Of a stretch of 64,000 nucleotides of DNA, positions 1 through 50,348 are shown piece by piece. The number at the start of each line of letters is the position of its first letter. The first letter of the stretch is position 1. Under the pieces are notes generated by a model. That model was not told the DNA's origin, did no database searches, and worked only from the letters and a program-made list of their open reading frames with translations. The stretch is from NCBI GenBank assembly GCA_002328075.1, contig DCVT01000015.1, forward strand, positions 75,971 to 139,970, given 5' to 3'. This stretch comes from Anaerolineales bacterium UBA2181 (GTDB lineage Bacteria; Chloroflexota; Anaerolineae; Promineifilales; UBA4811). Both the position numbers and the translations under genes were made by a program.

Positions 1-1295
1 GCGGTGGAGTCAGTGGAATGACGGCTGCCTTGACATTGGCCGACGCGGGGCAGGATGTAACGCTGGTGGAAATGTCGGATGCGTTGGGCGGAAATCTGCG
101 GTACATCTACTACCTGGCAGAGGGCCTAAATCCACATCGCTTGCTGCGTGACCTGGTCAATCGCATACGGGGAAACCACCGAATAGATGTCCTCCTGCGC
201 AGCCAGCTGAAATCGATGAGTGGGTCTATTGGGCGGTTCAGGAGCGTGATCGAGACTTGGCCAACATCGGACACGCCGACGACAACTGAGGTGGAACATG
301 GCGCGATCGTCGTGGCCACCGGCGGTCGGGAGGGAACTACGCGGAAATACCTCTATGGCCAGGATCCCCGCGTTGTGACGCAACTCCAATTGGAGGACTG
401 GATAGCCCATCAACCAGAAAAGGTGGCCAACCTAAGGCACCTGGTGATGGTGCAATGCGTTGAATCGGACGAAGTCGGTTACTTTTACTGCTCGCGCACC
501 TGCTGCACCAGCACCATGAAGAACGCCATTCGGGTAAAGATGCTCAACCCCGATTGCCAGGTGACCGTGCTGTACAAGGATATCATCACCTACGGTTTTC
601 GAGAGCAGTACTACACGGAGGCTCGTAGGCGTGGGGTGCTGTTTATCCGCTATGCCGATGAACGGCTGCCACTGGTGGATCTGGTCGACGGCGAGCTTGA
701 GGTCAGCGTCACTGATCCCAGCCTGGACCTTCGGCCCTACAAATTGAAACCGGATCTGATTTCTTTGAGCATGCCGGTGGTACCGTCTGATCTGACGGCC
801 CAACTCGCCGGGAAACTGAAGCTTCCGCTCTCGAGCGAAGGCTTTTTCCTGGAGGCGGATCTCAAGATGCGGCCGATGGATTTTGTGGCCGAGGGAATCT
901 ACCTGTGTGGTATGGCCCACTACCCGCGTTTCATCGAGGAATCGATCTCCAGCGCACAGGCCGCAGCCGGCCGCGCATTGACTATCCTTAGCCAGAGCCC
1001 GCTATACGTCGGCGGTGTGATAGCCGAGGTTGATCCGGAAAAGTGCGTCGGTTGTCTTACCTGTGTCCGCACCTGTCCCTTTAGCATACCGCATCTGCTG
1101 TATGACCGGGCCGGGGTGGGCGACTTGGGTGGCCATGCGTGGATCGATCCGGCCATTTGCCAGGGTTGCGGAACTTGCACCGGCGAATGCCCCGCAGCCG
1201 CCATCGAACTGGTGAACTATCGGGATGCGGATGTGTTCCTGGGCGGCAACTGGCTGGGCGCGTGGCTTCCCCAGGCCGCGACGGAAGAACGGTGA
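1..1295 (+). CDS. hdrA: HdrA-like FAD/FeS oxidoreductase, C-terminal module; 5' end cut by window edge
   Basis: The frame is open from nt 3 (GGVSGMTAALTLADAG is a GxGxxG dinucleotide fold). It has a YCSRTCC motif and a C-terminal pair of CxxCxxCxxxCP ferredoxin motifs. It is colinear with residues ~1130-1523 of the ORF at 1952..6523. Confidence 0.8.
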   Translation, partial: GGVSGMTAALTLADAGQDVTLVEMSDALGGNLRYIYYLAEGLNPHRLLRDLVNRIRGNHRIDVLLRSQLKSMSGSIGRFRSVIETWPTSDTPTTTEVEHGAIVVATGGREGTTRKYLYGQDPRVVTQLQLEDWIAHQPEKVANLRHLVMVQCVESDEVGYFYCSRTCCTSTMKNAIRVKMLNPDCQVTVLYKDIITYGFREQYYTEARRRGVLFIRYADERLPLVDLVDGELEVSVTDPSLDLRPYKLKPDLISLSMPVVPSDLTAQLAGKLKLPLSSEGFFLEADLKMRPMDFVAEGIYLCGMAHYPRFIEESISSAQAAAGRALTILSQSPLYVGGVIAEVDPEKCVGCLTCVRTCPFSIPHLLYDRAGVGDLGGHAWIDPAICQGCGTCTGECPAAAIELVNYRDADVFLGGNWLGAWLPQAATEER

Positions 1296-1300: not shown

Positions 1301-1780
1301 ATGGCCACTGATCAGGGACCAATCCAGATTTCGTCCGACAACATGTTTGAACCAGACCTGACGCTGTTCACCTGCAACTATTGCGCCTACATGGCCGGTG
1401 ACACAGCCGGTGCGCTGCGTCTACAATACCCGGCCAATGTCAAAATGGTCCGGCTTCCCTGCACGGGCAAGATCGATGTGCGTTATATCCTGGCTGCATT
1501 CGAGCAAGGGGCCGATGGCGTGTATATCGTCGCCTGCCCGATCGGTACTTGCCACCATGTTCGGGGTAACGAGCGGGCCCGTTCGCGGGTGGCTTTGGCG
1601 AAGAAGGTGCTGGACCAGATTGGCCTGGGCAGTGATCGGCTGGAGATCCATTTCCTGTCCGCCGGTCAAGGCACCACCTATGCTGCGGTGGCCAGGGATA
1701 TGGTGGAGAAAATCCGCCGTTTAGGTCCGAACCCGCTGCGCGCAAACCGTCTGGAGGCGTATCGACCAGGGAACGGCTGA
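1301..1780 (+). CDS. mvhD: MvhD-like (methyl-viologen-reducing hydrogenase delta subunit family) protein, Cys form
   Basis: Motifs FTCNYCAY, LPCTGK, GADGVYIVACPIGTCHH. I take ATG 1301 as the start, because the track ORF start at 1139 would overlap the upstream gene. The gene lies 5 nt after the upstream stop. Confidence 0.85.
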   Translation: MATDQGPIQISSDNMFEPDLTLFTCNYCAYMAGDTAGALRLQYPANVKMVRLPCTGKIDVRYILAAFEQGADGVYIVACPIGTCHHVRGNERARSRVALAKKVLDQIGLGSDRLEIHFLSAGQGTTYAAVARDMVEKIRRLGPNPLRANRLEAYRPGNG

Positions 1781-1951: not shown

Positions 1952-4900
1952 ATGGATAGCAATTCACCTGATGGAAAGCCCCTGGTAGGGGCCGTCATGG
2001 TGGTGGGGGGCGGTATCGCGGGGATGCAGGCGTCGCTGGACCTCGGCGAACAGGGGTTCAGGGTCTATTTGGTGGAGTCGGAGTCGGCGATTGGCGGCCA
2101 CATGGCCCAATTGGACAAGACGTTTCCCACCAATGACTGCTCCATGTGTACCATCAGCCCGAAATTGGTGGACGTCGGCCGGCACATCAACATCGAATTG
2201 CTGACCGACACAGACGTGCTGGACATGGCGGGCGCGCCGGGCGACCTCACCGTCCGAGTCAGACGCCGGCCGCGGTACATTGACTTGACCAAATGTGTGG
2301 GTTGTGGAGACTGCGCCAACGTCTGTCCGGTCATTCTGCCGGACCATTTTAACGAGCAATTGACGGATCGGCGCGCTGCGTTCAAGCTGTACCCTCAGGC
2401 CGTGCCCAACGCCTATGCCCTCGAGAAACGGGGTATTGCACCTTGCCGCGATGCCTGTCCGGCCGGGCAACGCGCGCAGGGGTATATCGCGCTGATCCGG
2501 GATGGCCGTCCCGAGGACGCCCTCCGCGTCATCAAGGAGGATAATCCCTTCCCCGGGATCTGCGGTCGGATCTGCAATCATCGCTGCGAGACTGCCTGCA
2601 ACCGGGGCAAGGTGGACGAAGCCATCAATATCCGCGCGCTCAAGCGCTACGTCACCGACACAGTGTACGCTCAGCCACGGGTGCCGGTCCCGCCGGCGGA
2701 GCGCCAATACGAACAGCGAGTGGCCATCATCGGCGCCGGGCCGTGCGGCCTTACGGCCGCCAAGGATCTCTGCCATGAAGGGTACGGCGTGACCGTCATC
2801 GAGGCGTTGCCGGTCGCCGGTGGCATGTTACGGGTCGGGGTACCCGAGTACCGGCTACCTACTGCCATCATTGACCGGGAGGTGCAGGACATTATTGACC
2901 TGGGTGTCGAACTGCGCCTGAACACGGTGGTGGAGAATCTGGACGACCTTTTTGCTGAGGGGTTCGACGCTGTGCTCATTGCGGTAGGAGCACACGAGGG
3001 GATACGGCTCCCCATTCCTGGGGCACAACTGGATGGCGTGTTGGTCAATACGCACTTTTTGCGCGACGTCCGACTGGGCAAGCACAACGGCAACAGCCGG
3101 TTAGGACGGGTTCTGGTTCTGGGTGGCGGGAACGTGGCGATGGACTGCGCGCGTACCGCTGTCCGACTGGGCGCGGACTCGGTGAGCATGGCCTGTCTCG
3201 AGCCGCGCGACGGTCTTCCGTGCCATGTGTGGGAAGCCCAGGCGGCCGAGGAAGAGGGAGTCACAATTTTCCCCAGCCGCACCTTTCTGCGAATACTGGA
3301 TGATGGCTTGGGTCGGGCGCGCGGGGTAGAGTGCAACCGGGTGACTTCGTTCTCGTTCGATCCCACCGGCCGGCTGGAGTTGGAGACTGAACCGCTCTCC
3401 AATCATGTGTTGGACTGCGACACGGTGATCTTTTCTGTGGGTCAGCGCGCCGGTCTTGCTTTCATCCCGGATGATGCCGGCGTTGGCCTGACCTCCAAAC
3501 GGACCGTCGCCATCAACCCGAATACGATGGCTGCCACCCGACCGGGCGTGTTCGCCGCCGGCGACAGCGTCAGCGGCACCGCTTTTGTGATCGAGGCGGT
3601 CGCCAGCGGCCATACCGCAGCTCGTTCGATTCACCGCTACCTTCGGGGCATGTACCTTGAGGCGCCGCACAAGCCTGAACTGCCGGTCGTTCAGATTACC
3701 GAGGCAGAGATAGAGCACCGCAAGCAGATCGGTGATATCCACATCCAGCGCCGGGTTCCAATGCAGGAATTGCCCGCTGAGAGACGCAGAGCGAGCTTTG
3801 ACGAGGTGGAGCAGGGGTACGATGACGTGTCGGCGCAGGCTGAGGCGGCTCGCTGCCTGGCGTGCGGATTGTGCTCCGAGTGCCTGAGCTGTGTTTACGA
3901 GTGCAAGGCAAATGCCATCGTCCACGACATGGTTGCTCAGACCGAGACGATTCGGGTGGGCGCTCTCATCCTCGCGCCGGGTTTCAAACCCTATCCGGCT
4001 GAGTTGTCGCAGGAGTATGGTTTTGGGCGTTACCCGAACGTGGTAACCGCGCTTCAGTTCGAGCGTTTGCTTTCCGCATCCGGACCTACCCAGGGCCACG
4101 TGGTCCGACCATCAAACCACAAGCCGGCGAAGAAGATTGCCTTCCTTCAGTGCATCGGCTCGCGGGATCGCATGCATGACTATTGTTCGTCGGTTTGCTG
4201 CATGTATGCCACCAAGCAAGCCATCATGGCCAAAGAGCACGAGCCGGACACCGAGATCCAGGTCTTTATGATGGACATGCGCTCCTTCAGCAAGGGCTAC
4301 GAGGAGTACTTTCATCGAGCGCGTGACAAATACGGTGTCAAGTACACCCGCTGCCGGGTATCGGCCGTGCGGCGCAACCCGCTGACCGAGAATCTGCTGG
4401 TGCGTTATGTTGTGGACGGTCCTGGCGCCCGACTACCAAAGGAGGAGGAGTTCGATCTGGTTGTCCTTTCGGTGGGCATGGAGATCGGCGAATCGACGCG
4501 GAACCTGGCGCGACAACTTGGCATCCAGTTGGATTCGTACGGGTTTGCCCGGACCGATAGCTTTCATCCGCTCCAGACCAGCCGGCCAGGGGTTTTCGCC
4601 ATTGGCCCTCTGCGGGAGCCCAAAGACATCCCCGAATCCGTGGTTGAGGCCAGCGGCGGCGCGGCGGCTGCGGCTGAGCTGTTGGCGCCGGTTCGGGGCA
4701 CAATGGCCACCCGCAAAGAGTACCCGCCGGAGCGGGATGTGTCGACCGAAGATCCCAAAGTCGGCGTCTTTGTGTGCCATTGTGGATCCAACATCGGCGG
4801 CTTTCTGGACGTTCCCGACGTGGCCGAGTATGCTCGGAGTCTTCCGGGCGTGGTTCACGCTGAGCACAACCTCTACACCTGTTCGCAGGATTCCATCGTG

Positions 4901-6523
4901 CACATAACGGAACAGGTGAAGGAATTGGGGTTGAACCGGGTGGTGGTTGCGTCCTGCACCCCGATCACGCATGAGCCGCTTTTCCGCGATAGCATTCGCG
5001 CCGCTGGCTTAAACCCGTTCTTGTTTGAGATGGCCAACATTCGGAATCACTGCTCCTGGGTCCACTCGGGCCAATGGGACGTGGCGACCGAAAAGGCAAA
5101 AGCGCTGGTGCGCATGGCGGTGGCCAAAGCCACCCGGATCCAGCCGCAGTACACCCAGGAGATGAAGGTAGAAAAGACCGTGCTGGTGATAGGCGGCGGT
5201 CCGGCCGGGTTGAACGCAGCACTTTCGCTGGCAAAGCAAGGCTTCCCGGTCGAGTTGGTGGAACGGACCGGGGAGTTGGGTGGCAACATACGGCATCTTT
5301 ACTATCTGGCGGACAGCGGGAACCTCCTGGCATCGGCGAAAACCGATCCGCAGGCATATCTGGTGGATCTGGTGGACCAGGTAACGCGCCATCCGCAGAT
5401 CACGGTTCACCTGAACACGGAATACGACCGGCTGGGCGGGTTCTCCGGCCAGTTTGTCAGCCGGTTCAACAAGCGCAACGGCAACGGAACGGAACCGGTG
5501 GAGGTGCGCCATGGCGCCATCATCGTCGCCACTGGCGGAAGGGAATACCGCGGCTCGGATTATGGCTTTGGGTCACATCACAACGTGATCACCCAGCAAG
5601 ACCTGGAGGAGCGTCTGTGGCGCTGGGAGAACCGGGAAGCCTCGGATCTGCCGCAATCGGTGGTCATGATTCAGTGCATCGGTCCGGCCGAGCAATATTG
5701 CTCGCGCATCTGCTGCACGGTGGCGCTCAAAAACGCCATCAAGCTCAAGGAGCTCGCTCCGAATACTCAGGTGACGGTCATTTACAAGGATATCAGAACC
5801 TTCGGCTTCAAAGAACGGTTATATTCGGCCGCTCGCGCCCGCGGAGTGCTATTCGTACGTTACAGCGATTCCCAACGGCCTGACGTCACGTGGTCCGACA
5901 GCGATGTGACCGGCACCCCGCCGCCCCTCAAGGTTGACGTGCATGACCCGGTTCTGGACCTGCCGTTGGAGTTGCGCCCAGACCTCGTGGTGCTTTCCAT
6001 GCCGCTGGTGCCGGCCGAAGGTGCTGAGGAGATGGTTAGCAAGCTGCGGGTTTCGGCCGACCTTGACGGCTGGTTCATGGAAGCACACGTCAAACTGCGG
6101 CCCGTCGACTTTAGCTCGGCCGGCATTTTCATGGCCGGCACGGCGCATTACCCCAAGTTTCTGGACGAGGCGATTGTGCAGGCCAACGCAGCGGCGGCGC
6201 GGGCCGCCAACCTTCTGGCATCCGACACCATGTTAGTGGGTGGGCAAGTGGCAGTGGTGGATGCTGAAAAGTGCGTGGGTTGCCTCACGTGCGTCCGCAT
6301 TTGCCCGTACCAAGTGCCAGAAATCCGATCCAGTTTGGGCGGCGTGGGCGAGATCGCTGGTGCTGCTTACGTGGAGCCGGCGGTCTGCCAAGGCTGTGGG
6401 TCGTGCGCTGCTGAATGCCCGGCGAAGGCGATACAATTGATGCATTACACAGACGCGCAACTGCTCTCCAAGGTTGACGCTCTGTTCGAGGTGTTTCCGG
6501 CCGACCGTATCCCGGTATTGTGA
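1952..6523 (+). CDS. hdrA: Giant HdrA-GltD-HdrA fusion flavoprotein (1523 aa)
   Basis: The N-terminus is HdrA-like (VVGGGIAGMQASLDL, FPTNDCSMC, CVGCGDCANVCP). An inserted glutamate-synthase-small-subunit/NfnB-like NAD(P)H module follows (GICGRICNHRCETACNRG, VAIIGAGPCGLTAAKDL, VLGGGNVAMDCART, GVFAAGD). The rest of HdrA then resumes (FLQCIGSRD..YCSSVCCMY, VFVCHCGSNIGG). A second HdrA-like module comes next (VIGGGPAGLNAAL, YCSRICCT), ending in a 2x[4Fe-4S] ferredoxin motif. Confidence 0.85.
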   Translation: MDSNSPDGKPLVGAVMVVGGGIAGMQASLDLGEQGFRVYLVESESAIGGHMAQLDKTFPTNDCSMCTISPKLVDVGRHINIELLTDTDVLDMAGAPGDLTVRVRRRPRYIDLTKCVGCGDCANVCPVILPDHFNEQLTDRRAAFKLYPQAVPNAYALEKRGIAPCRDACPAGQRAQGYIALIRDGRPEDALRVIKEDNPFPGICGRICNHRCETACNRGKVDEAINIRALKRYVTDTVYAQPRVPVPPAERQYEQRVAIIGAGPCGLTAAKDLCHEGYGVTVIEALPVAGGMLRVGVPEYRLPTAIIDREVQDIIDLGVELRLNTVVENLDDLFAEGFDAVLIAVGAHEGIRLPIPGAQLDGVLVNTHFLRDVRLGKHNGNSRLGRVLVLGGGNVAMDCARTAVRLGADSVSMACLEPRDGLPCHVWEAQAAEEEGVTIFPSRTFLRILDDGLGRARGVECNRVTSFSFDPTGRLELETEPLSNHVLDCDTVIFSVGQRAGLAFIPDDAGVGLTSKRTVAINPNTMAATRPGVFAAGDSVSGTAFVIEAVASGHTAARSIHRYLRGMYLEAPHKPELPVVQITEAEIEHRKQIGDIHIQRRVPMQELPAERRRASFDEVEQGYDDVSAQAEAARCLACGLCSECLSCVYECKANAIVHDMVAQTETIRVGALILAPGFKPYPAELSQEYGFGRYPNVVTALQFERLLSASGPTQGHVVRPSNHKPAKKIAFLQCIGSRDRMHDYCSSVCCMYATKQAIMAKEHEPDTEIQVFMMDMRSFSKGYEEYFHRARDKYGVKYTRCRVSAVRRNPLTENLLVRYVVDGPGARLPKEEEFDLVVLSVGMEIGESTRNLARQLGIQLDSYGFARTDSFHPLQTSRPGVFAIGPLREPKDIPESVVEASGGAAAAAELLAPVRGTMATRKEYPPERDVSTEDPKVGVFVCHCGSNIGGFLDVPDVAEYARSLPGVVHAEHNLYTCSQDSIVHITEQVKELGLNRVVVASCTPITHEPLFRDSIRAAGLNPFLFEMANIRNHCSWVHSGQWDVATEKAKALVRMAVAKATRIQPQYTQEMKVEKTVLVIGGGPAGLNAALSLAKQGFPVELVERTGELGGNIRHLYYLADSGNLLASAKTDPQAYLVDLVDQVTRHPQITVHLNTEYDRLGGFSGQFVSRFNKRNGNGTEPVEVRHGAIIVATGGREYRGSDYGFGSHHNVITQQDLEERLWRWENREASDLPQSVVMIQCIGPAEQYCSRICCTVALKNAIKLKELAPNTQVTVIYKDIRTFGFKERLYSAARARGVLFVRYSDSQRPDVTWSDSDVTGTPPPLKVDVHDPVLDLPLELRPDLVVLSMPLVPAEGAEEMVSKLRVSADLDGWFMEAHVKLRPVDFSSAGIFMAGTAHYPKFLDEAIVQANAAAARAANLLASDTMLVGGQVAVVDAEKCVGCLTCVRICPYQVPEIRSSLGGVGEIAGAAYVEPAVCQGCGSCAAECPAKAIQLMHYTDAQLLSKVDALFEVFPADRIPVL

Positions 6524-6533
6524 GGATTGGACT

Positions 6534-6956
6534 ATGGACGACCCGAGCTTTGAACCCCAGATCGTGACCTTTGCCTGCCACTACTGCGCCTATGCGGCGG
6601 CCGACCTGGCGGGCGGGCTGCGGCTCAAGTACCCGGCCGCTATCAAGATCATCGAATTGCCGTGCAGCGGCAAGCTTGACGTGATGCATGCATTGCGCGC
6701 CTTTGAAGACGGTGCGGATGGGGTACTGGTGGCAGGTTGACTGGAGGGCGATTGTCATTACCGGGACGGTAATATCAACGCCAGAAGACGAGTAGAACAC
6801 GTGCGCAAATTGCTCGACCAGATCGGACTGAGCGGTCGTCGCGTCCAGATGATCAATGTGTCTTCAGCCATGGGCGGGCAGTTTGCCTACCTGGCGGCCG
6901 AGATGACGTCAGAGATCGAAAAACTGGGCCCGAACCCGTTGCGAGGCGCAAAATGA
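6534..6956 (+). CDS. mvhD: MvhD-like protein with in-frame UGA (putative selenocysteine) at 6738..6740
   Basis: ATG 6534 is preceded by GAGGA. The N-terminal half (FACHYCAY..LPCSGK..GADGVLVAG) stops at TGA 6738. The same frame continues as LEGDCHYRDGN..GPNPLRGAK to TGA 6954-6956. The TGA aligns with the Cys of VACPIGTCHH in the paralog at 1301..1780. Confidence 0.75.
6756..6774 (+). promoter_or_regulatory. Putative bacterial SECIS hairpin
   Basis: ATTACCG-GGA-CGGTAAT forms a 6-7 bp stem with a G-rich apical loop, starting about 16 nt after UGA 6738. The identical core is found after the second in-frame UGA at 13700. Confidence 0.55.
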
Positions 6957-8140
6957 ACGCAACCACGGCCGAGACGTTGAAACGTTTCGGACCCTTTGCC
7001 GGGTTCGACGACCAGGAGATCGAGGAGATAGCCCAGCTCTGCCAGGAGCGTAACTACGGCGAGGGCGATGTGCTCTTTGTGGAGGATGAGCCGGCTGAAT
7101 GGCTCTTCCTTGTCCTGGAGGGTAGGCTCTCGCTGGAAAAGACGGTTCAACTCGGCCGCAGCGGTTCGTCGCGACGGGCTACCATCGACGTGGTGGGCCC
7201 GTATCAGGTTGGAGGCTGGTCCAGCGTCATTGCTCCCCACACCTACACATCCACCGGGGTCTGTCAAGAGCCGGCGCGAGTGTTGCTGCTGGACGGCCGG
7301 GCACTTCACGCCCTGATTGCGCGGTACCCAACGACCGGCCCGGTCTTTATGGATGCTATTGCCGCGATCATTTCTTCGCGGTTGCGCCAGACCACCACCA
7401 CATTGACGTATTTCCTCTCCATCATATCTCACGAGCTGAAATCGCCCCTGGCGGCAATTGAGAACTACTTACAGGTGATGCTGGGAGGATTCACCGGCGA
7501 ACTCAGCGAAAAGCAGCGGAGAATGTTGGAGCGGAGTGTGCTCCGTGTGACCGATTTGCGTGGCATGATCAACGACATTCTGGACCTGGCACGCATGAGG
7601 CCCGAGCAGGTGCAGGCGGATTTTGAGTGGGTTGATCCTTCGGTGCCGGGCAACCAGGCCATCGAAGATGTGCGGCTCGCGGCTCAGCAAAAGGACGTCA
7701 CCGTTCGGGTCGAAGCTCCGGCCGAGTTCAAGAAAATCGTTGCCGCACCGCGGCGGTTGCGCCAAGTGTACTCTAACTTGCTGTCCAATGCCGTCAAGTT
7801 TTCCCCCGATGGGGGCGAAGTAACGCTGATCGCCCGTGACGAGCCGGATGGTCTGGTGGTCGAGATACTGGATGAGGGCCCCGGTATTCCGGCCGACGAA
7901 CAGGTATACGTGTTCGAGGATTTCTACCGCGGCCGGAATGCCGGGGCGGTAGCCGGCTCAGGCCTGGGGCTTTCGATTGTGAAAAAGGTCGTTGAGGCTC
8001 ACGGGGGCTCAATCCGTGTGGAAAGCCCGTATCAGGAAGGCAAAACGGGTACCAAGGTTACGGTGAGGATTCCACGTAACCTGACTACTCCGGAGATGAG
8101 ACGTCGTCAGTGGTCTTTGCGCCAGGAGGACAAAGGATGA
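6953..8140 (+). CDS. Sensor histidine kinase with N-terminal cyclic-nucleotide-binding-like domain
   Basis: The N-terminal fold is cNMP/Crp-like (GDVLFVEDEPAEWLFLVLEGRLSL). It has an H-box SHELKSPL and N/G boxes (LLSNAVKFSP, DEGPGIP, GSGLGLSIV). The ATG overlaps the upstream stop as ATGA at 6953-6956. Confidence 0.85.
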   Translation: MNATTAETLKRFGPFAGFDDQEIEEIAQLCQERNYGEGDVLFVEDEPAEWLFLVLEGRLSLEKTVQLGRSGSSRRATIDVVGPYQVGGWSSVIAPHTYTSTGVCQEPARVLLLDGRALHALIARYPTTGPVFMDAIAAIISSRLRQTTTTLTYFLSIISHELKSPLAAIENYLQVMLGGFTGELSEKQRRMLERSVLRVTDLRGMINDILDLARMRPEQVQADFEWVDPSVPGNQAIEDVRLAAQQKDVTVRVEAPAEFKKIVAAPRRLRQVYSNLLSNAVKFSPDGGEVTLIARDEPDGLVVEILDEGPGIPADEQVYVFEDFYRGRNAGAVAGSGLGLSIVKKVVEAHGGSIRVESPYQEGKTGTKVTVRIPRNLTTPEMRRRQWSLRQEDKG

Positions 8141-8919
8141 TGCCGCAGCAACAGCCGTACATTCTGTTGGTGGATGATGACCCCGATATCTTGGAGGGTC
8201 TGGTTGCGGTCTTGGAGACTCAACCTTATCGGTTGGAGACCGCACGCGATGGCGTAGAATGCCTGGAGGCGATCGCTCGCGAGGTACCCGACCTGGTGAT
8301 CGTGGACCTGCTCATGCCACGCAAGGATGGGTTTGCCACCATCCGCGAGATTCGCAGCAGTCCAGGTCATTCCACGCTGTCTATCATGGTCCTGACCACC
8401 GTCGTTGAGGACGCCAGCCGGCGCCGCTATGAACTGGAGACCGGGCTGGACATGGATGTTCAGGACTATATGGAAAAACCCGTCGCTCCGGTCGAGCTGC
8501 TGAGGCGGGTTGCCAACATCTTGGAGCAGCCTTCCATACTGGTGGCGGACGACGATCCGGATATCCTGGAGGGTATCGTGACGGTGCTCAAGAGCCAACC
8601 CTATCGCTTGCGGGCAGCCAGAGACGGTCGGGAATGTCTGGACCTCATATACCGCAAACGTCCCGACCTGCTCATCCTGGACCTGCTCATGCCCAAGATG
8701 GATGGTTTTGCCGTCATCCGAGAACTCCGCCGGGAACCGGCGTTTGCTGACCTGCCTATCATGGTTTTGACCGCCGTGTTGGAGGATGCCAGCCACCGCC
8801 GGTACGAACTGGAGACGGGCCGGCAGATGCGGGTGAACACCTACATAGAAAAGCCGGTGGCCCCGGCCGAGCTGCTGGCTCGGGTGGACCAGCTGCTCAA
8901 GGCCAGATTCGGGTCATGA
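8137..8919 (+). CDS. Tandem-receiver response regulator (REC-REC, no output domain)
   Basis: There are two ~125-aa internal repeats. Each has DDDPDILEG, the phospho-acceptor context DL(V/L)I(V/L)DLLMP(R/K)(K/M)DGF, and (M/I)EKPV. An AGGAGG RBS lies 7 nt upstream of ATG 8137. The start overlaps the kinase stop as ATGA. Confidence 0.85.
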   Translation: MMPQQQPYILLVDDDPDILEGLVAVLETQPYRLETARDGVECLEAIAREVPDLVIVDLLMPRKDGFATIREIRSSPGHSTLSIMVLTTVVEDASRRRYELETGLDMDVQDYMEKPVAPVELLRRVANILEQPSILVADDDPDILEGIVTVLKSQPYRLRAARDGRECLDLIYRKRPDLLILDLLMPKMDGFAVIRELRREPAFADLPIMVLTAVLEDASHRRYELETGRQMRVNTYIEKPVAPAELLARVDQLLKARFGS

Positions 8920-11900
8920 TGGATCACCCAGATCGCGTGATCGAACCGGCAGCGCAACCGCAGCCTGTAGGAGCTGTCATGGTTGTGGGTGCGGGTATTG
9001 GTGGCATCCAGGCCTCGCTGGACCTGGCAGAAACCGGCTACAAGGTCTATCTGGTGGAGAGCCGGTCTGCCATCGGCGGGCGAATGGCGCAGTTGGATAA
9101 GACGTTTCCCACCAACGATTGTGCGATGTGCATTGTCAGCCCCAAGTTGGTGGATGCCGGTCGTCACCTCAACATTGAGTTGATGACCGATACGGACGTG
9201 ATGGATGTGTCCGGACCCCCGGGCGATATGTCCGTACGGTTGGTCCGAAAACCCCGGTATGTGGACCTGACCAAGTGCGTCGGCTGCGGCGATTGTGCGG
9301 ACGTGTGTCCGGTGGTCTTGCCCGACAAGTTCAACGAGGGCCTTGCCCTGCGTCGCGCTGCATTCAGGCTCTATCCGCAGGCCGTGCCCAACGCCTATGC
9401 CGTTGAGAAGCTGGGCATTGCCCCCTGCCGTGATGCCTGCCCCACCGGTCAACGCGCGCAGGGCTATATCGCGCTGATCCGCGAGGGCCGCTTTCATGAT
9501 GCGTTGCGCGTGATCAAAGAGGACAACCCGTTCCCCGGGATCTGCGGGCGAATCTGCAACCACCGATGTGAGACCGCCTGCAACCGCGGTAAACTGGACG
9601 AGCCCGTCAATATCCGGGCGCTCAAGCGGTTCGTGACCGACAAGGTGTATGCCGAACCGCGCGCTCCCGTGGCGCCGGCTGAGGTCAAATACGCGGAGCG
9701 GGTGGCGATCATCGGCGCCGGACCATGTGGACTCACCGCGGCACAGGACCTGGCCAAGACCGGATACCTAGTCACGGTCGTGGAGGCCCTGCCGGTAGCC
9801 GGCGGCATGCTGCGGGTCGGGGTGCCCGAGTATCGCCTGCCGACCGCCATTATCGAACGTGAGGTTCAGGATGTACTGGATCTGGGGGTCAAGCTGCGCC
9901 TGAACACCACGGTGGAGAACCTGGACGATCTCTTTGCCGAGGGGTTCCAGGCAGTCCTCATTGCCGTGGGTGCCCACGAGGGTATTCGCCTCGCTGTGCC
10001 TGGGGCTAACCTCGATGGCGTTCTGATCAACACCAGTTTCCTGCGCGACGTCCGGTTGGGTAATCCGCCGAAATTGGGAAAACGAACGGCGGTCATTGGT
10101 GCAGGCGATGTCGCCATGGACGTAGCCCGCACAGCCCTCCGGCTGGGCGCGCAGGTGGATCTCTACTATCGCCGCCTGCGCGAGGAAGCCACTGCCGACG
10201 ACGAAGAGATGACGCACGCCGAGGAAGAAGGCGCTGCATTCCACTGGCAGACCACGCCGATTGAGGTCATGGGTGAGGCGGGCCGCGTGGTCGGGCTCAA
10301 GATGGTGCGCACCGAACAGGGCTTACCCGACGAGACCGGCCGGCGGCGACCGGTGCTGGTCCCGGGATCCGAGCGCGTCGTACCCTGCGAGAATGTCATC
10401 TTTTCGGTCGGGCAGCGGGCCGGCCTGGCATTCATCCCCGAGAGCGTCGGCGTGGGGGTCACTAACCAGGCCACTGTGGCTGTCAATCCCCATACGCTGG
10501 CGGCCAGCCGACCCGGTGTCTTTGCTGCCGGTGACGTCACCACCGGCACCGCCTTTGTCATTGAGGCAGTGCAGGCGGGTCATCAGGCGGCCGAATCCAT
10601 ACATCGTTACATCCGTGGCAAGGAATTAGAGTCGCCACCCAAGCCCAAACTGCCGGTGGTGGAACTGGTCCGGGCAGACATCGACGAACGCGTGGCGCGT
10701 GGCGAGGTCAAACCCCAGCCGCGAGTGCCGATGGACCGGCTGCCGCCCACTGATCGCCGCGGGTCGTTTGACGAGGTGGTGGCAGGTTACACGGATGAGA
10801 AGGCACAGGCCGAAGCCGCGCGGTGTCTGGCCTGTGGGGTCTGTTCTGAATGCCTGAGTTGCCAGTACACCTGCCAGGCAGACGCCATCGTGCACGATGC
10901 GACGGCACGCACCGAGTCCGTCCAGGTTGGCGCGATGATTTTGGCACCCGGATTCGAGCCATTTGCGGCTAACCGGTTGCAGGAGTATGGGTTTGGTCGC
11001 TACCACAACGTCGTGACATCGCTCCAGTTTGAGCGGTTGCTCAGCGCTTCCGGGCCCACCTTCGGTCACGTCAATCGGCCAGGCGACGGCCAGCCGGCCA
11101 AGAGGATTGCCTTTCTGCAGTGCATCGGATCTCGCGATGCGGACCACGATTACTGTTCCTCGGTTTGCTGCATGTATGCAACCAAAGAGGCGATCATGGC
11201 TATCGAACATGATCGCGAGACCGAGGCGCACATCTTTATGATGGATATGCGCTCCTTTAGCAAGGGGTATGACGAGTACTATCGCCGGGCCCGGGACAAA
11301 TGCGGGGTGCGCTATACACGGTGCCGCGTATCAGCCGTACGCGAGAACCGCGCGAATGGCAACCTTATCATCCGGTACGTTTCAGAGGACGCACCCGAGC
11401 CGGAGCGGCTCTCTTTGGTCAGCGAAAAGGAGTTCGACCTGGTGGTGCTCTCGGTGGGCATGGAGGTCGCCGCGAGCGCCCGAGAACTGACCCGCCGGCT
11501 TGGAGTTGACCTGGACCGATCCGGGTTCTGTCGAACAGAGATGTTGGAGCCGTTGCAGACCTCGCATCCGGGCGTGTTTGTTGTCGGTCCATTCCGCGAA
11601 CCCAAGGATATTCCAGAGACGGTGGTCGAAGCCAGCGGAGCTGCAGGCGCGGTTGCCGGTTTGCTACAGGGTGGTCGTTGGACTCTCACCCGGGAAAAGG
11701 AATACCCACCGGCGCGCCGGGTGGATGATGAAGAGCCGCGAGTCGGGGTTTTTGTCTGCCACTGCGGATCTAACATAGGCGGCTATCTGGATGTTCCAGC
11801 GGTCACCGAGTACGCAGCTACCCTCCCTTCGGTGGCGCATGCAGAGAACAACCTGTATACGTGTTCGCAAGATTCGATTGCTCGTATCAGCCAACGGGTG

Positions 11901-13481
11901 CAGGAATTGGGGCTCAACCGGGTGGTCGTGGCAGCCTGCACGCCGTTGACGCACGAGCCCCTGTTCCAGGACAGCCTGCGATCGGCCGGGTTGAATCCCT
12001 ATCTGTTTGACATGGCCAACATCCGCAACCAGTGCTCCTGGGTACACGGCGATGACTGGGATGCGGGTACGGGCAAGGCCAAGGACCTGGTGCGGATGGC
12101 GGTCGCCCGGGCGTCGCTGTTGGAGCCCCTCAGCAAGACGGTCGTGCCAGTGCAGAAACGGGCGCTGGTGATCGGCGGCGGCCCGGCCGGGATGCACGCC
12201 TCCCTGGCGTTGGCCAAGCAGGGGATTGCTGTGACCCTGGTAGAGCGCGAGGCTGAGCTGGGTGGCAACCTCCGCCGACTGCGGTATCTGGCGGACGTGC
12301 AGCACAGCGAGCAGCCAGTTGCGTTGATCGACGCCCGCGCGTATCTGAACGACCTGGTCCGCGAGGTGACGACGGACCCGCTCATCGAAGTACGTGTGCA
12401 CACCCAACTGGTGAGCAGCGGCGGTTTCAAGGGCAACTTCCGATCCGTGCTGCGGTCACCAGACAGCCAGACTGAGATTGAGCACGGTGCCACGATCATC
12501 GCCACGGGTGGGCAAGAACACCGAGGGCCAGAGTATCGACACGGGGCCGATCCCAGGATCATGACCCTGTTCGATTTCGAGGCGCGTCTGGCGGATTGGG
12601 AGGATGGCCCTCTGCCGGAAAGGCCAGAGTTGCCGGGGTCGGTGGTGGTCATTCTCTGTGCAGGCAGCCCGGCTGATCGGTACTGCAGTCGTGTCTGTTG
12701 TGCTGCCGCCCTCAAGAATATTCTGGCACTGAAGCAACTGAACCCGGACGTGCAGGTAACCGTGTTCTATCGGGACATACGCACGTTTGGCTTCAAGGAG
12801 CGGCTGTACACCGAGGCGCGCCGTCAACGGGTGCTGTTTGTGCGCTATGACGATGATCGTCGGCCGGTAGTGGACCTGCCAGCGGACGGTAAGGATCTCA
12901 CCGTGACCGGTCGGGAGCCTGTACTGAAGCAGGATCTGGTTCTCTACCCCGATCTGGTGGTACTGGCTATGCCGATGGTGCCAGCAGGCGAGGCCGGCGA
13001 AATGGCACGCACCCTCAAAGCGGGGCAGGACCTGGACGGCTGGATTATGGAGGCGCACGTCAAGCTCAGGCCGGTGGATCTGGCTACCGAAGGCCTGTAT
13101 GTAGCCGGCTGCGCACATTATCCCAAGTTCGTGGAAGAGGTCATCGCCCAGGCACAAGCCGCGGCTGGTCGCGCCATGACAGTGCTCAGCCGAGATTGGC
13201 TCGAGGTCGGGGGTGTTGTCGCCAAGGTTGACTCTGCGCTTTGCGTGGGTTGCCTGACCTGTGTTCGGATCTGTCCTTTCAACGTCCCCACTATCGATCC
13301 GCACCTTGCGGGGGTCGGCGGCATCGCGGGAGCGGCGGTCATCGAGCCGGCCCTCTGCCAGGGTTGTGGAATCTGTGTGGGAGAGTGTCCTGCCAAGGCA
13401 ATCCGGCTGCAGCACTATCAGGACGAACAGCTCAGGGCCAAGATAGCAACTTTCTGGCCAGCAGAGCCAGTGCCAGCCTGA
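8916..13481 (+). CDS. hdrA: Second giant HdrA-GltD-HdrA fusion flavoprotein (1521 aa), paralog of 1952..6523
   Basis: It is colinear with the first fusion and carries the same motif series (FPTNDCAMC, GICGRICNHRCETACNRG, VAIIGAGPCGLTAAQDL, FLQCIGSRD..YCSSVCCMY, VFVCHCGSNIGG, YCSRVCCAAAL, C-terminal 2x CxxCxxCxxxCP). The start overlaps the response regulator stop as ATGA. Confidence 0.85.
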   Translation: MMDHPDRVIEPAAQPQPVGAVMVVGAGIGGIQASLDLAETGYKVYLVESRSAIGGRMAQLDKTFPTNDCAMCIVSPKLVDAGRHLNIELMTDTDVMDVSGPPGDMSVRLVRKPRYVDLTKCVGCGDCADVCPVVLPDKFNEGLALRRAAFRLYPQAVPNAYAVEKLGIAPCRDACPTGQRAQGYIALIREGRFHDALRVIKEDNPFPGICGRICNHRCETACNRGKLDEPVNIRALKRFVTDKVYAEPRAPVAPAEVKYAERVAIIGAGPCGLTAAQDLAKTGYLVTVVEALPVAGGMLRVGVPEYRLPTAIIEREVQDVLDLGVKLRLNTTVENLDDLFAEGFQAVLIAVGAHEGIRLAVPGANLDGVLINTSFLRDVRLGNPPKLGKRTAVIGAGDVAMDVARTALRLGAQVDLYYRRLREEATADDEEMTHAEEEGAAFHWQTTPIEVMGEAGRVVGLKMVRTEQGLPDETGRRRPVLVPGSERVVPCENVIFSVGQRAGLAFIPESVGVGVTNQATVAVNPHTLAASRPGVFAAGDVTTGTAFVIEAVQAGHQAAESIHRYIRGKELESPPKPKLPVVELVRADIDERVARGEVKPQPRVPMDRLPPTDRRGSFDEVVAGYTDEKAQAEAARCLACGVCSECLSCQYTCQADAIVHDATARTESVQVGAMILAPGFEPFAANRLQEYGFGRYHNVVTSLQFERLLSASGPTFGHVNRPGDGQPAKRIAFLQCIGSRDADHDYCSSVCCMYATKEAIMAIEHDRETEAHIFMMDMRSFSKGYDEYYRRARDKCGVRYTRCRVSAVRENRANGNLIIRYVSEDAPEPERLSLVSEKEFDLVVLSVGMEVAASARELTRRLGVDLDRSGFCRTEMLEPLQTSHPGVFVVGPFREPKDIPETVVEASGAAGAVAGLLQGGRWTLTREKEYPPARRVDDEEPRVGVFVCHCGSNIGGYLDVPAVTEYAATLPSVAHAENNLYTCSQDSIARISQRVQELGLNRVVVAACTPLTHEPLFQDSLRSAGLNPYLFDMANIRNQCSWVHGDDWDAGTGKAKDLVRMAVARASLLEPLSKTVVPVQKRALVIGGGPAGMHASLALAKQGIAVTLVEREAELGGNLRRLRYLADVQHSEQPVALIDARAYLNDLVREVTTDPLIEVRVHTQLVSSGGFKGNFRSVLRSPDSQTEIEHGATIIATGGQEHRGPEYRHGADPRIMTLFDFEARLADWEDGPLPERPELPGSVVVILCAGSPADRYCSRVCCAAALKNILALKQLNPDVQVTVFYRDIRTFGFKERLYTEARRQRVLFVRYDDDRRPVVDLPADGKDLTVTGREPVLKQDLVLYPDLVVLAMPMVPAGEAGEMARTLKAGQDLDGWIMEAHVKLRPVDLATEGLYVAGCAHYPKFVEEVIAQAQAAAGRAMTVLSRDWLEVGGVVAKVDSALCVGCLTCVRICPFNVPTIDPHLAGVGGIAGAAVIEPALCQGCGICVGECPAKAIRLQHYQDEQLRAKIATFWPAEPVPA

Positions 13482-13492
13482 CAGAGGAGCCA

Positions 13493-13987
13493 ATGATCAA
13501 GGACGTGTGTAACGAACCCGGGATTTTAGCCTTTTGTTGTCGGCATTGTGCCTACGTGGCGGCTGACCTGGCTGGTTCAATGAGACTGAGATATCCGGCC
13601 AGCCTGCGGGTGGTCGAGATTCCCTGCTCGGGCAAGTTTGAGGTGATTCAGGCGCTCTATGCCTTCGAGCGGGGAGTAGATGGCGTCATGGTGGCGGGTT
13701 GACTGGAAGGCGACTGTCATTACCGGGACGGTAATGTAAAAGCCAAGCGACGAGTGGAGTATGCGAACAGGCTGCTGGAGCAGATCGGTCTTTCTGGCGG
13801 TCGGATACGGATGGTTAACGTCTCTTCTGCCATGGGAGCTCGGTTTGCGGAGCAAGCCACTCAGATGACTGAGCATCTGCGACAGCTTGGGCCAAGTCCG
13901 CTTCGGCGTCTGAGCAGCTCCGCGTCAGTTCAGGACGCGCATGCCGACCGGCCGCAGGCTCCGGACGCCAGCGATATTGTTATGTGA
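13493..13987 (+). CDS. mvhD: MvhD-like protein with in-frame UGA (putative selenocysteine) at 13700..13702
   Basis: ATG 13493 is preceded by GAGGAG. FCCRHCAY..IPCSGK..GVDGVMVAG runs to TGA 13700. The same frame (13754-13493 = 261 nt) continues as LEGDCHYRDGNVKAKRRVEYANRLLEQIGLSGGRIRMVNVSSAMG... to TGA 13985-13987. Confidence 0.75.
13718..13736 (+). promoter_or_regulatory. Putative bacterial SECIS hairpin (second copy)
   Basis: CATTACCG-GGA-CGGTAATG forms an 8-bp stem starting 15 nt after UGA 13700. The core is identical to 6756..6774, while flanking synonymous and non-synonymous positions differ. Confidence 0.55.
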
Positions 13988-14567: not shown

Positions 14568-14622
14568 AGGAGCATGCTGCCTCGATTTGGCACTCTGCCT
14601 TTTTCAAGAGAGAGGTTTCAAT

Positions 14623-15372
14623 ATGATCGTAGGGGAACAAAAACCGCTGGAAGAGATAAAGGGGTTTCTGGATGGCAGTCAAAAAGTGCTGGTCGTTGGT
14701 TGCGGCACCTGTGTGACTGTCTGTTTTGCCGGAGGCGAAAAGGAGGCACAGATCTTGGCGGCCTCGCTCCGGATGAGCACTGCCCTCACTGGTGCACCCA
14801 AGGAGGTCACCGATGTCACCGTGCAGCGCCAGTGCGAATGGGAATACCTGGACCTGATAAAAAACGAGGTTCAGGAGGCAGACATCATCGTGTCCATCGC
14901 TTGCGGAATCGGCGTGCAGGCAATGGCCAAGCACTTTCCGGACAAATGGGTGGTGCCAGGGCTGAACACGACGTTTCTGGGGCTGCCCGAGGAACAGGGT
15001 ATTTGGACCGAGCAATGCCAGGCATGCGGAAACTGCATTCTGGCCCTCACTGGCGGGATCTGTCCCATAGCTCGATGCTCGAAGCAGCTGCTCAATGGAC
15101 CCTGCGGCGGTTCGGAGAAGGGGCTTTGCGAGGTCAAGCGAATAAAGCGGGAGCACGGGCTGCCCGTCATGCAGACAGATGCTCGCGGCCGAAAAACCCC
15201 CGTGATCGAGGATGTGGACTGTGCCTGGCACCTGATCCACGAGCGCCTAAAGGCGTTGGGCAAGCTGGATATGCTCACGCAAATACAACCACCCAAAGAT
15301 TGGTCTACGGCAAGGGATGGCGGTCCTCGGCGGATTGTCCGTGAGGACCTCATGTTGTTGGATGAGGGATAA
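14623..15372 (+). CDS. metV: MetV-type methylene-THF reductase accessory subunit (MTHFR C-terminal-like, Cys-rich)
   Basis: Cys clusters VVGCGTCVTVCFAGG, CQACGNCIL, GICPIARCSK..NGPCGG. It lies immediately upstream of metF, the arrangement seen in acetogen metVF clusters. ATG 14623 has an upstream AGAGAGG. Confidence 0.75.
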   Translation: MIVGEQKPLEEIKGFLDGSQKVLVVGCGTCVTVCFAGGEKEAQILAASLRMSTALTGAPKEVTDVTVQRQCEWEYLDLIKNEVQEADIIVSIACGIGVQAMAKHFPDKWVVPGLNTTFLGLPEEQGIWTEQCQACGNCILALTGGICPIARCSKQLLNGPCGGSEKGLCEVKRIKREHGLPVMQTDARGRKTPVIEDVDCAWHLIHERLKALGKLDMLTQIQPPKDWSTARDGGPRRIVREDLMLLDEG

Positions 15373-15373
15373 C

Positions 15374-16360
15374 ATGTCGGCACAGGATTCAAATGGCTAC
15401 AAATCTGGCGGGAATCTGGAAAAGGTACTGCGGGGAGGTTACTTTGCGGTAACCGGGGAGCTGGGTCCGCCGCAGAACGCCGACGGCGACCACATTCGGA
15501 AGAAGGCATCCCACCTGCGCGGAGTGGTGGATGCGGTCAACATCACGGACAACCAGACTGCGGTCGTGCGCATGTCCTCTCTGGGAGCGGCATTCGTGGC
15601 GATCCAGGAGGGCCTAGAACCGGTCATGCAGATGACCTGTCGTGACCGGAACCGGCTGGCTATGCAGGCCGATTTCCTGAGTGCGTACGCATCTGGTGTG
15701 CGCAACATGCTGGCGTTGACGGGTGACCATCAATCGTTTGGAAACCACCCTACGGCCAAGAACGTTCATGACATTGACTCGCTCCAACTGATTCGCATGC
15801 TGCGGGATCTCCGGGATGAGAAAAAGTTCGAGTGTGGTGAGGCGATCAAAGGACAAGAACCCCGGTTTTTCATCGGCGCGGCTGCCGCTCCAGAAGCGGG
15901 TCCGACCGAATACCGACCATACCGCCTGGCAAAGAAGGTGGAGGCTGGGGCGGACTTTGTGCAGACCCAACTGGTGTACAATGTGGAGGCATTTAAAAAG
16001 TTCATGGAGGTGGTCCGGCAACTCGGGCTGCACGAGAAGCTATTCATCTTGGTCGGTGTCGGGCCACTCAAGGGCCCGGCCATGGCACGGTACATGCGCG
16101 ATTTCGTGCCGGGAATCACCATGCCGGACCACATCATTGAGCGGATGGAGAACGCAGCGGCGAATATTCCCAAGGAAGAAAAGAACGCCCGTAACCAGGC
16201 CTGGCGAGACGAGGGGATCAAGGTCTGCATCGAGATCATCCAGCAGGTGCGTGATATTGAGGGCGTGGCCGGCGTGCACGTGATGGCCATCGAGTGGGAA
16301 GAGGCGGTAAGGCCGATTGTGGATGGAGCTGGCCTGTTGCCCCGGCCGGCGGTGGACTAG
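15374..16360 (+). CDS. metF: 5,10-methylenetetrahydrofolate reductase
   Basis: MetF motifs are present (AVNITDN, MQMTCRDRNR, NMLALTGD, FFIGAAAAPE, GADFVQTQLVYN). It starts 1 nt after the metV stop. Confidence 0.85.
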   Translation: MSAQDSNGYKSGGNLEKVLRGGYFAVTGELGPPQNADGDHIRKKASHLRGVVDAVNITDNQTAVVRMSSLGAAFVAIQEGLEPVMQMTCRDRNRLAMQADFLSAYASGVRNMLALTGDHQSFGNHPTAKNVHDIDSLQLIRMLRDLRDEKKFECGEAIKGQEPRFFIGAAAAPEAGPTEYRPYRLAKKVEAGADFVQTQLVYNVEAFKKFMEVVRQLGLHEKLFILVGVGPLKGPAMARYMRDFVPGITMPDHIIERMENAAANIPKEEKNARNQAWRDEGIKVCIEIIQQVRDIEGVAGVHVMAIEWEEAVRPIVDGAGLLPRPAVD

Positions 16361-18723: not shown

Positions 18724-19404
18724 ATGTTGGTTAGTGACCTGATGACACCCAATCCTGTAACAGTCCTACCCGGGGTTTCGGTGGCAGCAGCGGCGGAAAC
18801 GATGGAGAAGCGTGGGATCCGGCACCTTCCGGTGGTGGATGAGCGTGGTGCGCTTGTTGGCCTGGTGACCAGGCCGACGCTTGCCCGGGCTTTGCCGGGT
18901 ACTGGAACCCATCTGACCCGGTTCGAGTACAATTACTTGATGGCATCGACGCAAGTGGGCGAGGTCATGATATCTGAGCCGGCCTGCATCGCGCCGGATT
19001 CAGCCGCCGAGGAGGCGGCGCGCATCATGAACGCCAAACGGATCAGCAGCCTGCTGGTGGTGCACGAAGGACAGCTTAATGGGATCATTACCGACACGGA
19101 TATCTTTGGCGCCCTGTTGGTTCTCATGGGTGCCCGCCGGCCGGGGGTCCGGTTGACCGTTCATATCCTGGACCGTGCCGGACAAATGGCCAAGGTCACG
19201 TCCGCTATCGCAGAACGGGGCGGTAATCTATCCGCGGTAGGCGGCTGGTATCTGAAAGACCGGCCGGAGATTTACGGTGCGATCCTCAAGGTGGAGAATC
19301 TCACCAAGGAGCAGGCAGTGGCTGCCATAAGTAACCTGGCCGATGTGAGGGTGGTGGATGTTCGTGGAGAGGAGGTTTTCCACCAACAGAACGTGGCCAG
19401 GTAA
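18724..19404 (+). CDS. CBS-pair plus ACT domain protein (AcuB-like)
   Basis: There are two CBS repeats (MTPNPVTV..GIRHLPVVDERGALVGLVT; MISEPACI..RISSLLVVHEGQLNGIITDTD). The C-terminus is an ACT-like segment. Confidence 0.7.
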   Translation: MLVSDLMTPNPVTVLPGVSVAAAAETMEKRGIRHLPVVDERGALVGLVTRPTLARALPGTGTHLTRFEYNYLMASTQVGEVMISEPACIAPDSAAEEAARIMNAKRISSLLVVHEGQLNGIITDTDIFGALLVLMGARRPGVRLTVHILDRAGQMAKVTSAIAERGGNLSAVGGWYLKDRPEIYGAILKVENLTKEQAVAAISNLADVRVVDVRGEEVFHQQNVAR

Positions 19405-19465
19405 TTGCCGGTGCGTACAAGGCTCTGATCGGGCCGGCACCGTCGGGTCCAAGACGCAAGGAGGT

Positions 19466-29801: not shown

Positions 29802-29821
29802 ATCAATCCAGGAGGTGTATC

Positions 29822-46651: not shown

Positions 46652-46687
46652 ACTTTGCTCCTGCGTTGGTCTGATCTTTATGCCGTG

Positions 46688-48004: not shown

Positions 48005-48045
48005 AATGCCACCTCCTCCAGCAGCGTCGTACGCGGAATCGGCAC

Positions 48046-50337: not shown

Positions 50338-50348
50338 GCGTTTGCCCT

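Follow-up and report, generated by a model that had tools for sequence, protein, structure and literature searches.

Two mvhD-like genes in a 64,000-nucleotide stretch of contig DCVT01000015.1 of Anaerolineales bacterium UBA2181 (positions 75,971 to 139,970, forward strand; the whole stretch is called the window below) are very probably selenoprotein genes, in each of which an in-frame UGA would be read as selenocysteine (Sec) by means of a downstream hairpin. From the sequence evidence, the probability of this reading is estimated at about 0.9. MvhD proteins carry a [2Fe-2S] cluster and serve as adaptors through which single electrons reach the bifurcating flavin of an HdrA-type partner. The two genes, their proposed Sec codons and a Cys-type paralog that served as internal control are the following.

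6534..6956, + strand: mvhD-like gene, copy 1; 140 amino acid residues, Sec at residue 69; PF02662 match over the full profile
6738..6740, + strand: proposed Sec codon of copy 1, in-frame TGA in the context VAG-U-LEGDCHY; Cys or TGA in homologs
13493..13987, + strand: mvhD-like gene, copy 2; 164 residues, Sec at residue 70; read-through gives a full MvhD sequence
13700..13702, + strand: proposed Sec codon of copy 2, in-frame TGA in the context VAG-U-LEGDCHYRDGN, as in copy 1
1301..1780, + strand: Cys-type mvhD paralog; PF02662 E-value 1.2e-43; Cys codon TGC at 1535-1537

The reading frame of copy 1 starts with the ATG at 6534, reads MDDPSFEPQIVTFACHYCAY...GVLVAG and then reaches the TGA at 6738-6740. 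After this codon the frame is open for exactly 71 codons (LEGDCHYRDGN...LGPNPLRGAK) up to the true stop, the TGA at 6954-6956. With the internal TGA taken as Cys or Sec, the product matched positions 1-123 of the 123-position PF02662 profile (FlpD/MvhD) with an E-value of 2.8e-46 and a score of 157 bits, the curated cut-off being 22.3 bits. Two open reading frames (ORFs), 6474..6740 and 6801..6956, are present on either side of the TGA, and public gene calls on independent assemblies of the contig split the gene into products of 68 and 51 residues. The TGA itself was identical in the independent assemblies (JGI, ENA and Logan). A preliminary description of this DNA, made from the letters alone, had claimed that a single TGA at 6738-6740 interrupts an MvhD-like frame that continues for 71 codons, that the GPNPL tail is common to the Cys paralog, that the TGA aligns with the first Cys of VA-C-PIGTCHH in that paralog and that standard gene callers would break the gene up. 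Translation bore out the first claim, the product of 1301..1780 does end with LGPNPL and carries its TGC at the column of the TGA, and the 68- and 51-residue fragments are what the last claim foresaw. The description was thus right about copy 1; copy 2 was overlooked.

In copy 2, the ORF 13241..13702 covers positions 1-59 of the PF02662 profile only and ends at the TGA, and the read-through sequence aligned with the family without gaps. The proteins of copies 1 and 2 were 63% identical, and the DNA of the gene core was 64.6% identical. Over the 36 nt from the TGA, DNA identity was 94.4%, and identity at third codon positions was 83% in this stretch vs. 37% elsewhere. The pattern of TGA, 15 nt and CATTACCNGGANGGTAAT occurs twice in the window, with 0.00 occurrences expected by chance. 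The Cys paralog was 50% identical to copy 1 and 45% identical to copy 2 at the amino acid level; the DNA downstream of its Cys codon differs, and no equivalent hairpin is found there.

The comparison set came from a scan with one genome per species and comprised 80 loci, mostly from metagenome-assembled genomes (MAGs) of Anaerolineae/Chloroflexota; a few loci were labelled Acidobacteriota, Gemmatimonadota, Deltaproteobacteria, Thermodesulfobacteriota, Moorella and others. In the alignment with Cys- and Sec-type homologs, which the preliminary description had proposed as a check, the codon at the TGA column was TGA in 59 genes (57 in the related loci and the two window copies) and TGC or TGT in 27. 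The protein alignment was free of gaps across 127 codons. Among the TGA genes, the ratio of nonsynonymous to synonymous substitution rates (dN/dS) was 0.10 over the 60 codons that precede the TGA and 0.16 over the 66 that follow it. It was 0.157 for codons +1 to +20, which lie upstream of any possible restart codon. Thus, the codons on both sides of the TGA are translated into one protein. Relatives with a real stop and decayed downstream sequence, which had been named beforehand as the pattern that would speak against Sec, are contradicted by this dN/dS of 0.16 and by the lack of gaps. In addition, TGA is the commonest ordinary stop codon of the window, where it ends 19 of the 39 confident genes; therefore, UGA is not reassigned genome-wide. 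Of the 30 closest database proteins inspected, none shows U at the Sec column, and several show W or G there. For instance, the database homologs P0003, P0004, P0007, P0008 and P0010 are full-length and read VAGWLEGDCHY or VAGGLEGDCHY. The W and G are best explained by pipelines that choose the wrong genetic code (4 or 25) for short contigs.

The hairpins that follow the two TGA codons are of the type of the bacterial Sec insertion sequence (bSECIS). Their coordinates, with minimum free energies (MFE), are as follows.

6747..6782, + strand: bSECIS-type hairpin of copy 1; 36 nt; MFE of -15.2 kcal/mol when folded alone; within all four bSECIS limits
6747-6750/6779-6782, + strand: lower stem of the copy 1 hairpin
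6752-6754/6776-6778, + strand: middle stem of the copy 1 hairpin
6757-6763/6767-6773, + strand: upper stem of the copy 1 hairpin, 7 bp
6764-6766, + strand: GGA apical loop of the copy 1 hairpin
13709..13744, + strand: bSECIS-type hairpin of copy 2; upper stem of 8 bp at 13718-13725/13729-13736, GGA loop at 13726-13728; MFE of -13.0 kcal/mol

The hairpin of copy 1 reads GGCG-A-UUG-UC-AUUACCG-GGA-CGGUAAU-AU-CAA-CGCC. Its upper part, ATTACCG-GGA-CGGTAAT at 6757..6773, starts 16 nt past the TGA, and the spacing between the TGA and the GGA loop is 23 nt. The preliminary description had seen this 7-bp stem with its GGA loop about 16 nt downstream, which holds, and had missed the lower part formed by UUG/CAA and GGCG/CGCC. 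For the 63-nt stretch of copy 1, an MFE of -17.6 kcal/mol was obtained, which 0 of 200 shuffled sequences equalled (z = -2.97). A SECIS check downstream of the 6738 TGA had also been suggested in that description and was made here with the published limits for bSECIS elements (Fig. 2 legend of PMC13188914), namely a loop of 3-9 nt with G in the first two loop positions, an upper stem of 4-16 bp, a distance of 16-37 nt from the UGA and an MFE of no more than -7.5 kcal/mol. Copy 1 (GGA loop, 7 bp, 23 nt, -15.2 kcal/mol) and copy 2 (GGA loop, 8 bp, 23 nt, -13.0 kcal/mol) lie within all four limits, as do 55 of the 59 TGA genes vs. 3 of the 27 Cys genes. The hairpin positions paired in register in 88.7% of cells, whereas controls in which the pairing was slid gave 28-60%. 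An alternative lower helix proposed by RNAalifold (columns 16-18 with 23-25) was dropped in view of the 88.7% in-register pairing of the extended hairpin. A 6-bp upper stem and the GGA loop were identical across all 59 TGA genes. The pair that closes the loop varied, being U-A in 44, G-C in 3, A-U in 1, G-U in 2 and unpaired in 7. G-C was found in copy 1 (6763/6767), in copy 2 (13725/13729) and in the closest relative (L004). The G-C pair corresponds to the codons CGG GAC (Arg-Asp) and the U-A pair of the 44 relatives to CTG GAA (Leu-Glu), so that the G-C form is a compensatory double change that keeps the base pair at the cost of two amino acids.

The six codons that encode the core of the hairpin (+6 to +11) are almost frozen in the TGA genes, which use CAT TAC CTG GAA GGT AAT with almost no synonymous variation. 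Synonymous-codon entropy was 0.04 bits over these codons and 1.40 bits over the remaining ones. The corresponding values for the Cys genes, in which CAY, TTY, GGN and AAY are used, were 1.11 bits and 1.51 bits. Thus, the hairpin is under RNA-level selection only in the TGA-bearing genes. Three Cys orthologs (L024:6205, L030:6190 and L076:971, with TGT or TGC) keep the complete hairpin CAUUACCUGGAAGGUAAU. The three Cys genes within the bSECIS limits have the same GGA loop and the same 23-nt spacing and are thus almost certainly these orthologs. In them, Sec seems to have been replaced by Cys recently, with the SECIS left as a fossil, as has been described earlier (PMC1794560).

The conserved cysteine set by which PF02662 proteins hold their [2Fe-2S] cluster (CxxC, LPC and C-x4-C) is present in copy 1, whose product aligned end to end with the solved MvhD/VhuD chains 7bkb_F, 9sfi_K, 9sw2_D and 5odc_D. 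C15, C18, C44, U69 and C74 of copy 1 aligned with cysteines of these chains. In 9sfi_K, deposited as the delta subunit of an F420-non-reducing hydrogenase, the non-standard residue X is found at CYQ-X-GY and at VAG-X-KPNEC, and the second of these is the column of the window TGA. This chain is probably the Methanococcus maripaludis VhuD of PMC13518236; archaeal VhuD is reported to have two Sec residues (PMC13188914). With the VhuD model NF045873, the window protein scored 156.6 bits, under the cut-off of 215 bits, and no genes for VhuA/G-type hydrogenase large or small subunits were found in the window or its flanks. The proteins are therefore named MvhD-like and not VhuD. Within the N-terminal CxxC, the second cysteine is reported to be an "additional" one that is not a ligand, Cys16 of M. 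marburgensis (PMC13580544), and Sec19 of BamF occupies the same non-ligand position (bioRxiv 10.64898/2026.04.10.717634). With this one of the five conserved cysteine positions set aside, the Sec of the window proteins, which corresponds to the position of M. marburgensis Cys67, probably belongs to the four ligands of the [2Fe-2S] cluster.

If the bacterial model of Sec insertion applies, a ribosome that reaches the UGA at 6738-6740 of copy 1 or at 13700-13702 of copy 2 would meet a hairpin that starts 6 nt further downstream. SelB carrying Sec-tRNA(Sec) would bind this hairpin through the GGA apical loop and the upper stem, and Sec would be inserted instead of termination, giving a full-length MvhD of 140 residues for copy 1 or 164 residues for copy 2. 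Sec recoding was already the reading of the preliminary description, and it is supported by the alignment with Cys, the conservation of the TGA, purifying selection, the fit to bSECIS, the frozen synonymous sites and the X of 9sfi_K. Its background statements, that MvhD/VhuD and HdrA proteins include selenoprotein families and that the SECIS lies immediately 3' of the UGA, agree with the literature (PMC1794560; PMC2702500; PMC13188914).

Several observations weigh against Sec insertion. No selA, selB, selD or tRNA-Sec gene was found in the 64-kb window, in its flanks (approximately 8.7 kb upstream and approximately 8 kb downstream) or in the related loci that were scanned. Pfam scans of approximately 40 window ORFs yielded no SelA, SelB or SelD; the only tRNA gene that ARAGORN found in the window was tRNA-Asn, and 58 related loci gave none. 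Beyond the window ends, the public contigs carry Wood-Ljungdahl genes on the upstream side and, on the downstream side, a cluster for a contractile injection system, and no sel genes. When all in-frame TGA codons of the window were screened with a codon model, both mvhD genes were recovered and no further convincing selenoprotein gene, the other top matches being adjacent genes in the same frame or antisense ORFs. The invariance of the upper stem leaves no covariation evidence for the hairpin, and the lower stem is only loosely kept. Moreover, Rfam searches at the gathering threshold over the whole window and at a permissive setting over 6700-6830 matched no SECIS-type family. The Rfam result is uninformative because no Rfam model matches the hairpin. 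Likewise, formal covariation is weak because the upper stem never varies, and conservation at synonymous sites was relied on instead. As the search for sel genes covered this contig stretch and the related loci, Sec decoding in the lineage is supported indirectly. Chloroflexi were listed among Sec decoders in 2006 (PMC1794560), a Chloroflexi tRNA-Sec of the 8/4 form has been described (PMC5389517), and genomes with Sec-type group 4 hydrogenases, Chloroflexota MAGs among them, usually carry selABCD (PMC13582414).

The ORF 29723..30472 (+ strand) was considered as a third Sec gene and rejected, as it is an uninterrupted Cys form with CQFC and CPYC. It matched NCBIfam TIGR02187 (PDO_seleno_TRX), a family whose name implies selenoproteins, with 267.9 bits vs. 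a cut-off of 185, and its translation probably begins at the internal ATG of MPMLDEK.

The alternative that survives best is read-through of the UGA without selenium, either by near-cognate decoding that the hairpin would stimulate (for example with tRNA-Cys or tRNA-Trp) or by a suppressor tRNA, which would place another residue at position 69 and would need no Sec machinery. Such read-through is in keeping with the failure to find this machinery in the available sequence, with the established ability of downstream hairpins to promote read-through in general and with the 27 homologs in which Cys works at the site, and we nevertheless consider it improbable. In loop size, G-G, spacing and energy, the hairpin fits the SelB-type bSECIS model; X is found at the same column in a solved chain of VhuD, the archaeal form of which is reported to have two Sec (PMC13188914); the family is a well-documented selenoprotein family (PMC1794560; PMC2702500); and selABCD is present in Chloroflexota MAGs that have other Sec genes (PMC13582414). 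Furthermore, a leaky UGA has been kept in 59 genes even though one base change gives Cys, which is difficult to account for unless Sec confers an advantage.

A genuine stop at 6738-6740, leaving either a pseudogene or a split gene with a 68-residue N-terminal product and perhaps a 51-residue C-terminal product started from the GTG at 6801, is very improbable. Although gene callers annotate the two pieces, and an ORF is found for each (6474..6740 and 6801..6956), the 20 codons that separate the TGA from this GTG are conserved at the protein level with synonymous variation (dN/dS of 0.157), the 59 TGA genes align without gaps, and both halves form one PF02662 domain with conserved cysteines on either side of the TGA. 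The same pattern is also seen in two diverged paralogs of one genome. Finally, a TGA miscalled for TGC or TGT, or a genome-wide reading of UGA as Trp or Gly (code 4 or 25), as the W or G in the database translations of some close homologs might suggest, is hardly credible, given the same TGA in the JGI, ENA and Logan assemblies and in 57 other genomic genes, its use as terminator in 19 of 39 window genes and the Cys, not Trp or Gly, that homologs have at the column.

The genes around the two mvhD genes indicate the likely partners of the proteins.

18..1295, + strand: 3' part of a 1049-residue hdrA-type gene, preceding the Cys-type mvhD
1952..6523, + strand: hdrL-type gene, 1523 residues, directly upstream of copy 1; Fer4_20, Pyr_redox_2 and Fer4 domains
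6953..8140, + strand: histidine kinase with a cyclic-nucleotide-binding (cNMP) domain, between the two hdrL-mvhD modules
8137..8919, + strand: response regulator with two receiver domains, between the two hdrL-mvhD modules
8916..13481, + strand: second hdrL-type gene, 1521 residues, directly upstream of copy 2; same domain set
15317..16360, + strand: metF (methylenetetrahydrofolate reductase), downstream of the hdr/mvhD modules
16432..17847, + strand: fused HdrC/HdrB-like CCG protein, downstream of the hdr/mvhD modules

All three mvhD genes directly follow an hdrA- or hdrL-type gene. The hdrL-type genes join a GltD-like NAD(P)H/FAD module to HdrA modules, and their products are 65.5% identical to each other. 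The first of them matched both HdrA2/HdrA and the glutamate synthase small subunit among NCBIfam models, and its 1523-residue product has the composition of HdrL (Fer4_20, Pyr_redox_2 and HdrA), an assignment made on domain composition. The metF gene and the gene of the HdrC/B-like CCG protein probably encode partners of the Hdr/MvhD modules. In addition, the public contig upstream of the window (L083) encodes RACo, a CooC-like ATPase, a pterin-binding AcsE-like methyltransferase and FolD. Because of this Wood-Ljungdahl, metF and Hdr gene context, the window MvhD proteins most likely act, by analogy, as one-electron adaptors to the bifurcating flavin of their HdrL/HdrA-type partners in Wood-Ljungdahl-linked redox reactions. 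No link to selenium was seen for the kinase/regulator pair (6953..8919). The layout with kinase and regulator between two hdrL-mvhD(Sec) modules was also found in a second assembly (L084). Another Anaerolineae MAG (L066) has two Sec-type mvhD genes, L066:5120 and L066:10954, approximately 6 kb apart, so the tandem duplication of hdrL-mvhD(Sec) occurs beyond this contig. Directly upstream of metF, a 256-residue ORF at 14574..15344 (+ strand) had no Pfam or NCBIfam match; it stands in the place that metV takes in acetogen clusters.

FrhD/MvhD is the third-largest bacterial selenoprotein family (PMC1794560). In Desulfobacterium autotrophicum HRM2, four Sec-type genes (mvhD1, mvhD2, mvhD3 and mvhD5) adjoin hdrA/hdrL (PMC2702500). 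Similar to these, the window genes encode small PF02662 proteins right after an HdrA/HdrL-type gene, with an in-frame UGA, Cys paralogs in the genome and a SECIS in the coding region. Different from D. autotrophicum, to which they are likened by description, the window genes are in an Anaerolineae-type member of the Chloroflexota that is no sulfate reducer, and in a Wood-Ljungdahl/MetF context. The archaeal VhuD (9sfi_K; NF045873) has the same fold and family, an X at the column of the window TGA and the same role of a [2Fe-2S] adaptor that feeds the bifurcating FAD of HdrA. However, VhuD has a second X in its CxxC (CYQ-X-GY) where the window proteins have Cys, the archaeal SECIS lies in the 3' untranslated region and has another structure, and no hydrogenase genes are adjacent in the window. 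BamF of the class II benzoyl-CoA reductase of Geobacter metallireducens is likewise a bacterial Sec-containing [2Fe-2S] adaptor that is homologous to MvhD and works with an HdrA-type bifurcating subunit (bioRxiv 10.64898/2026.04.10.717634). Its Sec19, however, is at the CxxC position and not at the column recoded in the window, and BamF is more than 100 residues longer. The hairpins resemble the consensus bSECIS of the E. coli fdhF type in their location in the coding region 3' of the UGA, small G-G loop, 23-nt spacing and stable stem, but do not resemble the E. coli fdh elements in sequence and are unusually invariant between genomes. An hdrABC-mvhD-metVF cluster was described in Moorella thermoacetica and marine Anaerolineae, where Sec in mvhD was not reported (PMC5736913). 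The window is similar to it in having Hdr-type genes, mvhD and metF beside Wood-Ljungdahl genes in an Anaerolineae-type genome, and differs in that the partners are giant HdrL-type fusions in two copies. The Moorella mvhD homologs of the comparison set (L079 and L080) have Cys and lack the hairpin.

Other features of the window lie apart from the mvhD genes. A T-box leader (Rfam RF00230, 100.3 bits) at 26123..26432 (+ strand) is upstream of a gene of the pyridoxal-phosphate-dependent PALP family (26567..27931, + strand) and not of an aminoacyl-tRNA synthetase gene. The tandem genes 19358..20902 and 20902..22380 (+ strand) each encode a fusion of a domain of the dihydrodipicolinate synthase (DHDPS) family with a formaldehyde-activating-enzyme (Fae) domain, and a class A bacterial RNase P RNA (RF00010, 221 bits) is found at 39476..39837 (+ strand). 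The region 45347..61941, mostly on the - strand, is a dense cluster of genes for FHA-domain proteins, Ser/Thr kinases and a PP2C phosphatase. It runs past the window end (L086/L087, 1..9990) into phage-tail-like contractile-injection-system genes for gp19 tube, CIS tube, VgrG/GPD, gp25 and baseplate proteins.

The family, the Sec column, the association of Sec-type mvhD with hdrA/hdrL and the bSECIS type are already known, and the finding leaves the knowledge of Sec insertion and of MvhD function unchanged. What it adds is the second copy, the spread of the gene in Anaerolineae-type genomes, the unusual invariance of the SECIS and the systematic annotation errors. Both mvhD genes should be annotated as single selenoprotein genes; at present they are split, or their TGA is rendered as Trp or Gly, and this misannotation conceals a component of Hdr-type electron-bifurcating modules in metabolic reconstructions of Anaerolineae. 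The Sec genes, the Cys genes with a fossil SECIS and the Cys genes without the hairpin form a natural series for the turnover between Sec and Cys. On this reading, selenium would be needed for part of the Wood-Ljungdahl-linked electron transfer in this organism and in no fewer than 57 related genomes. A broader proposal, which we put forward tentatively and at somewhat less than even odds, is that Sec-type MvhD is a conserved trait of Wood-Ljungdahl Anaerolineae and related Chloroflexota, with Sec probably at a [2Fe-2S] ligand position and an almost invariant SECIS. A recent review (2026) confined Sec-containing hydrogenase-type subunits to sulfate reducers and methanogens (PMC13188914). If the proposal is true, the family would reach beyond these two groups, its gene would be systematically hidden in public data, being split or mistranslated with W or G, and, in a sediment lineage of very high abundance, electron bifurcation linked to HdrL/MetF would be influenced by the supply of selenium.

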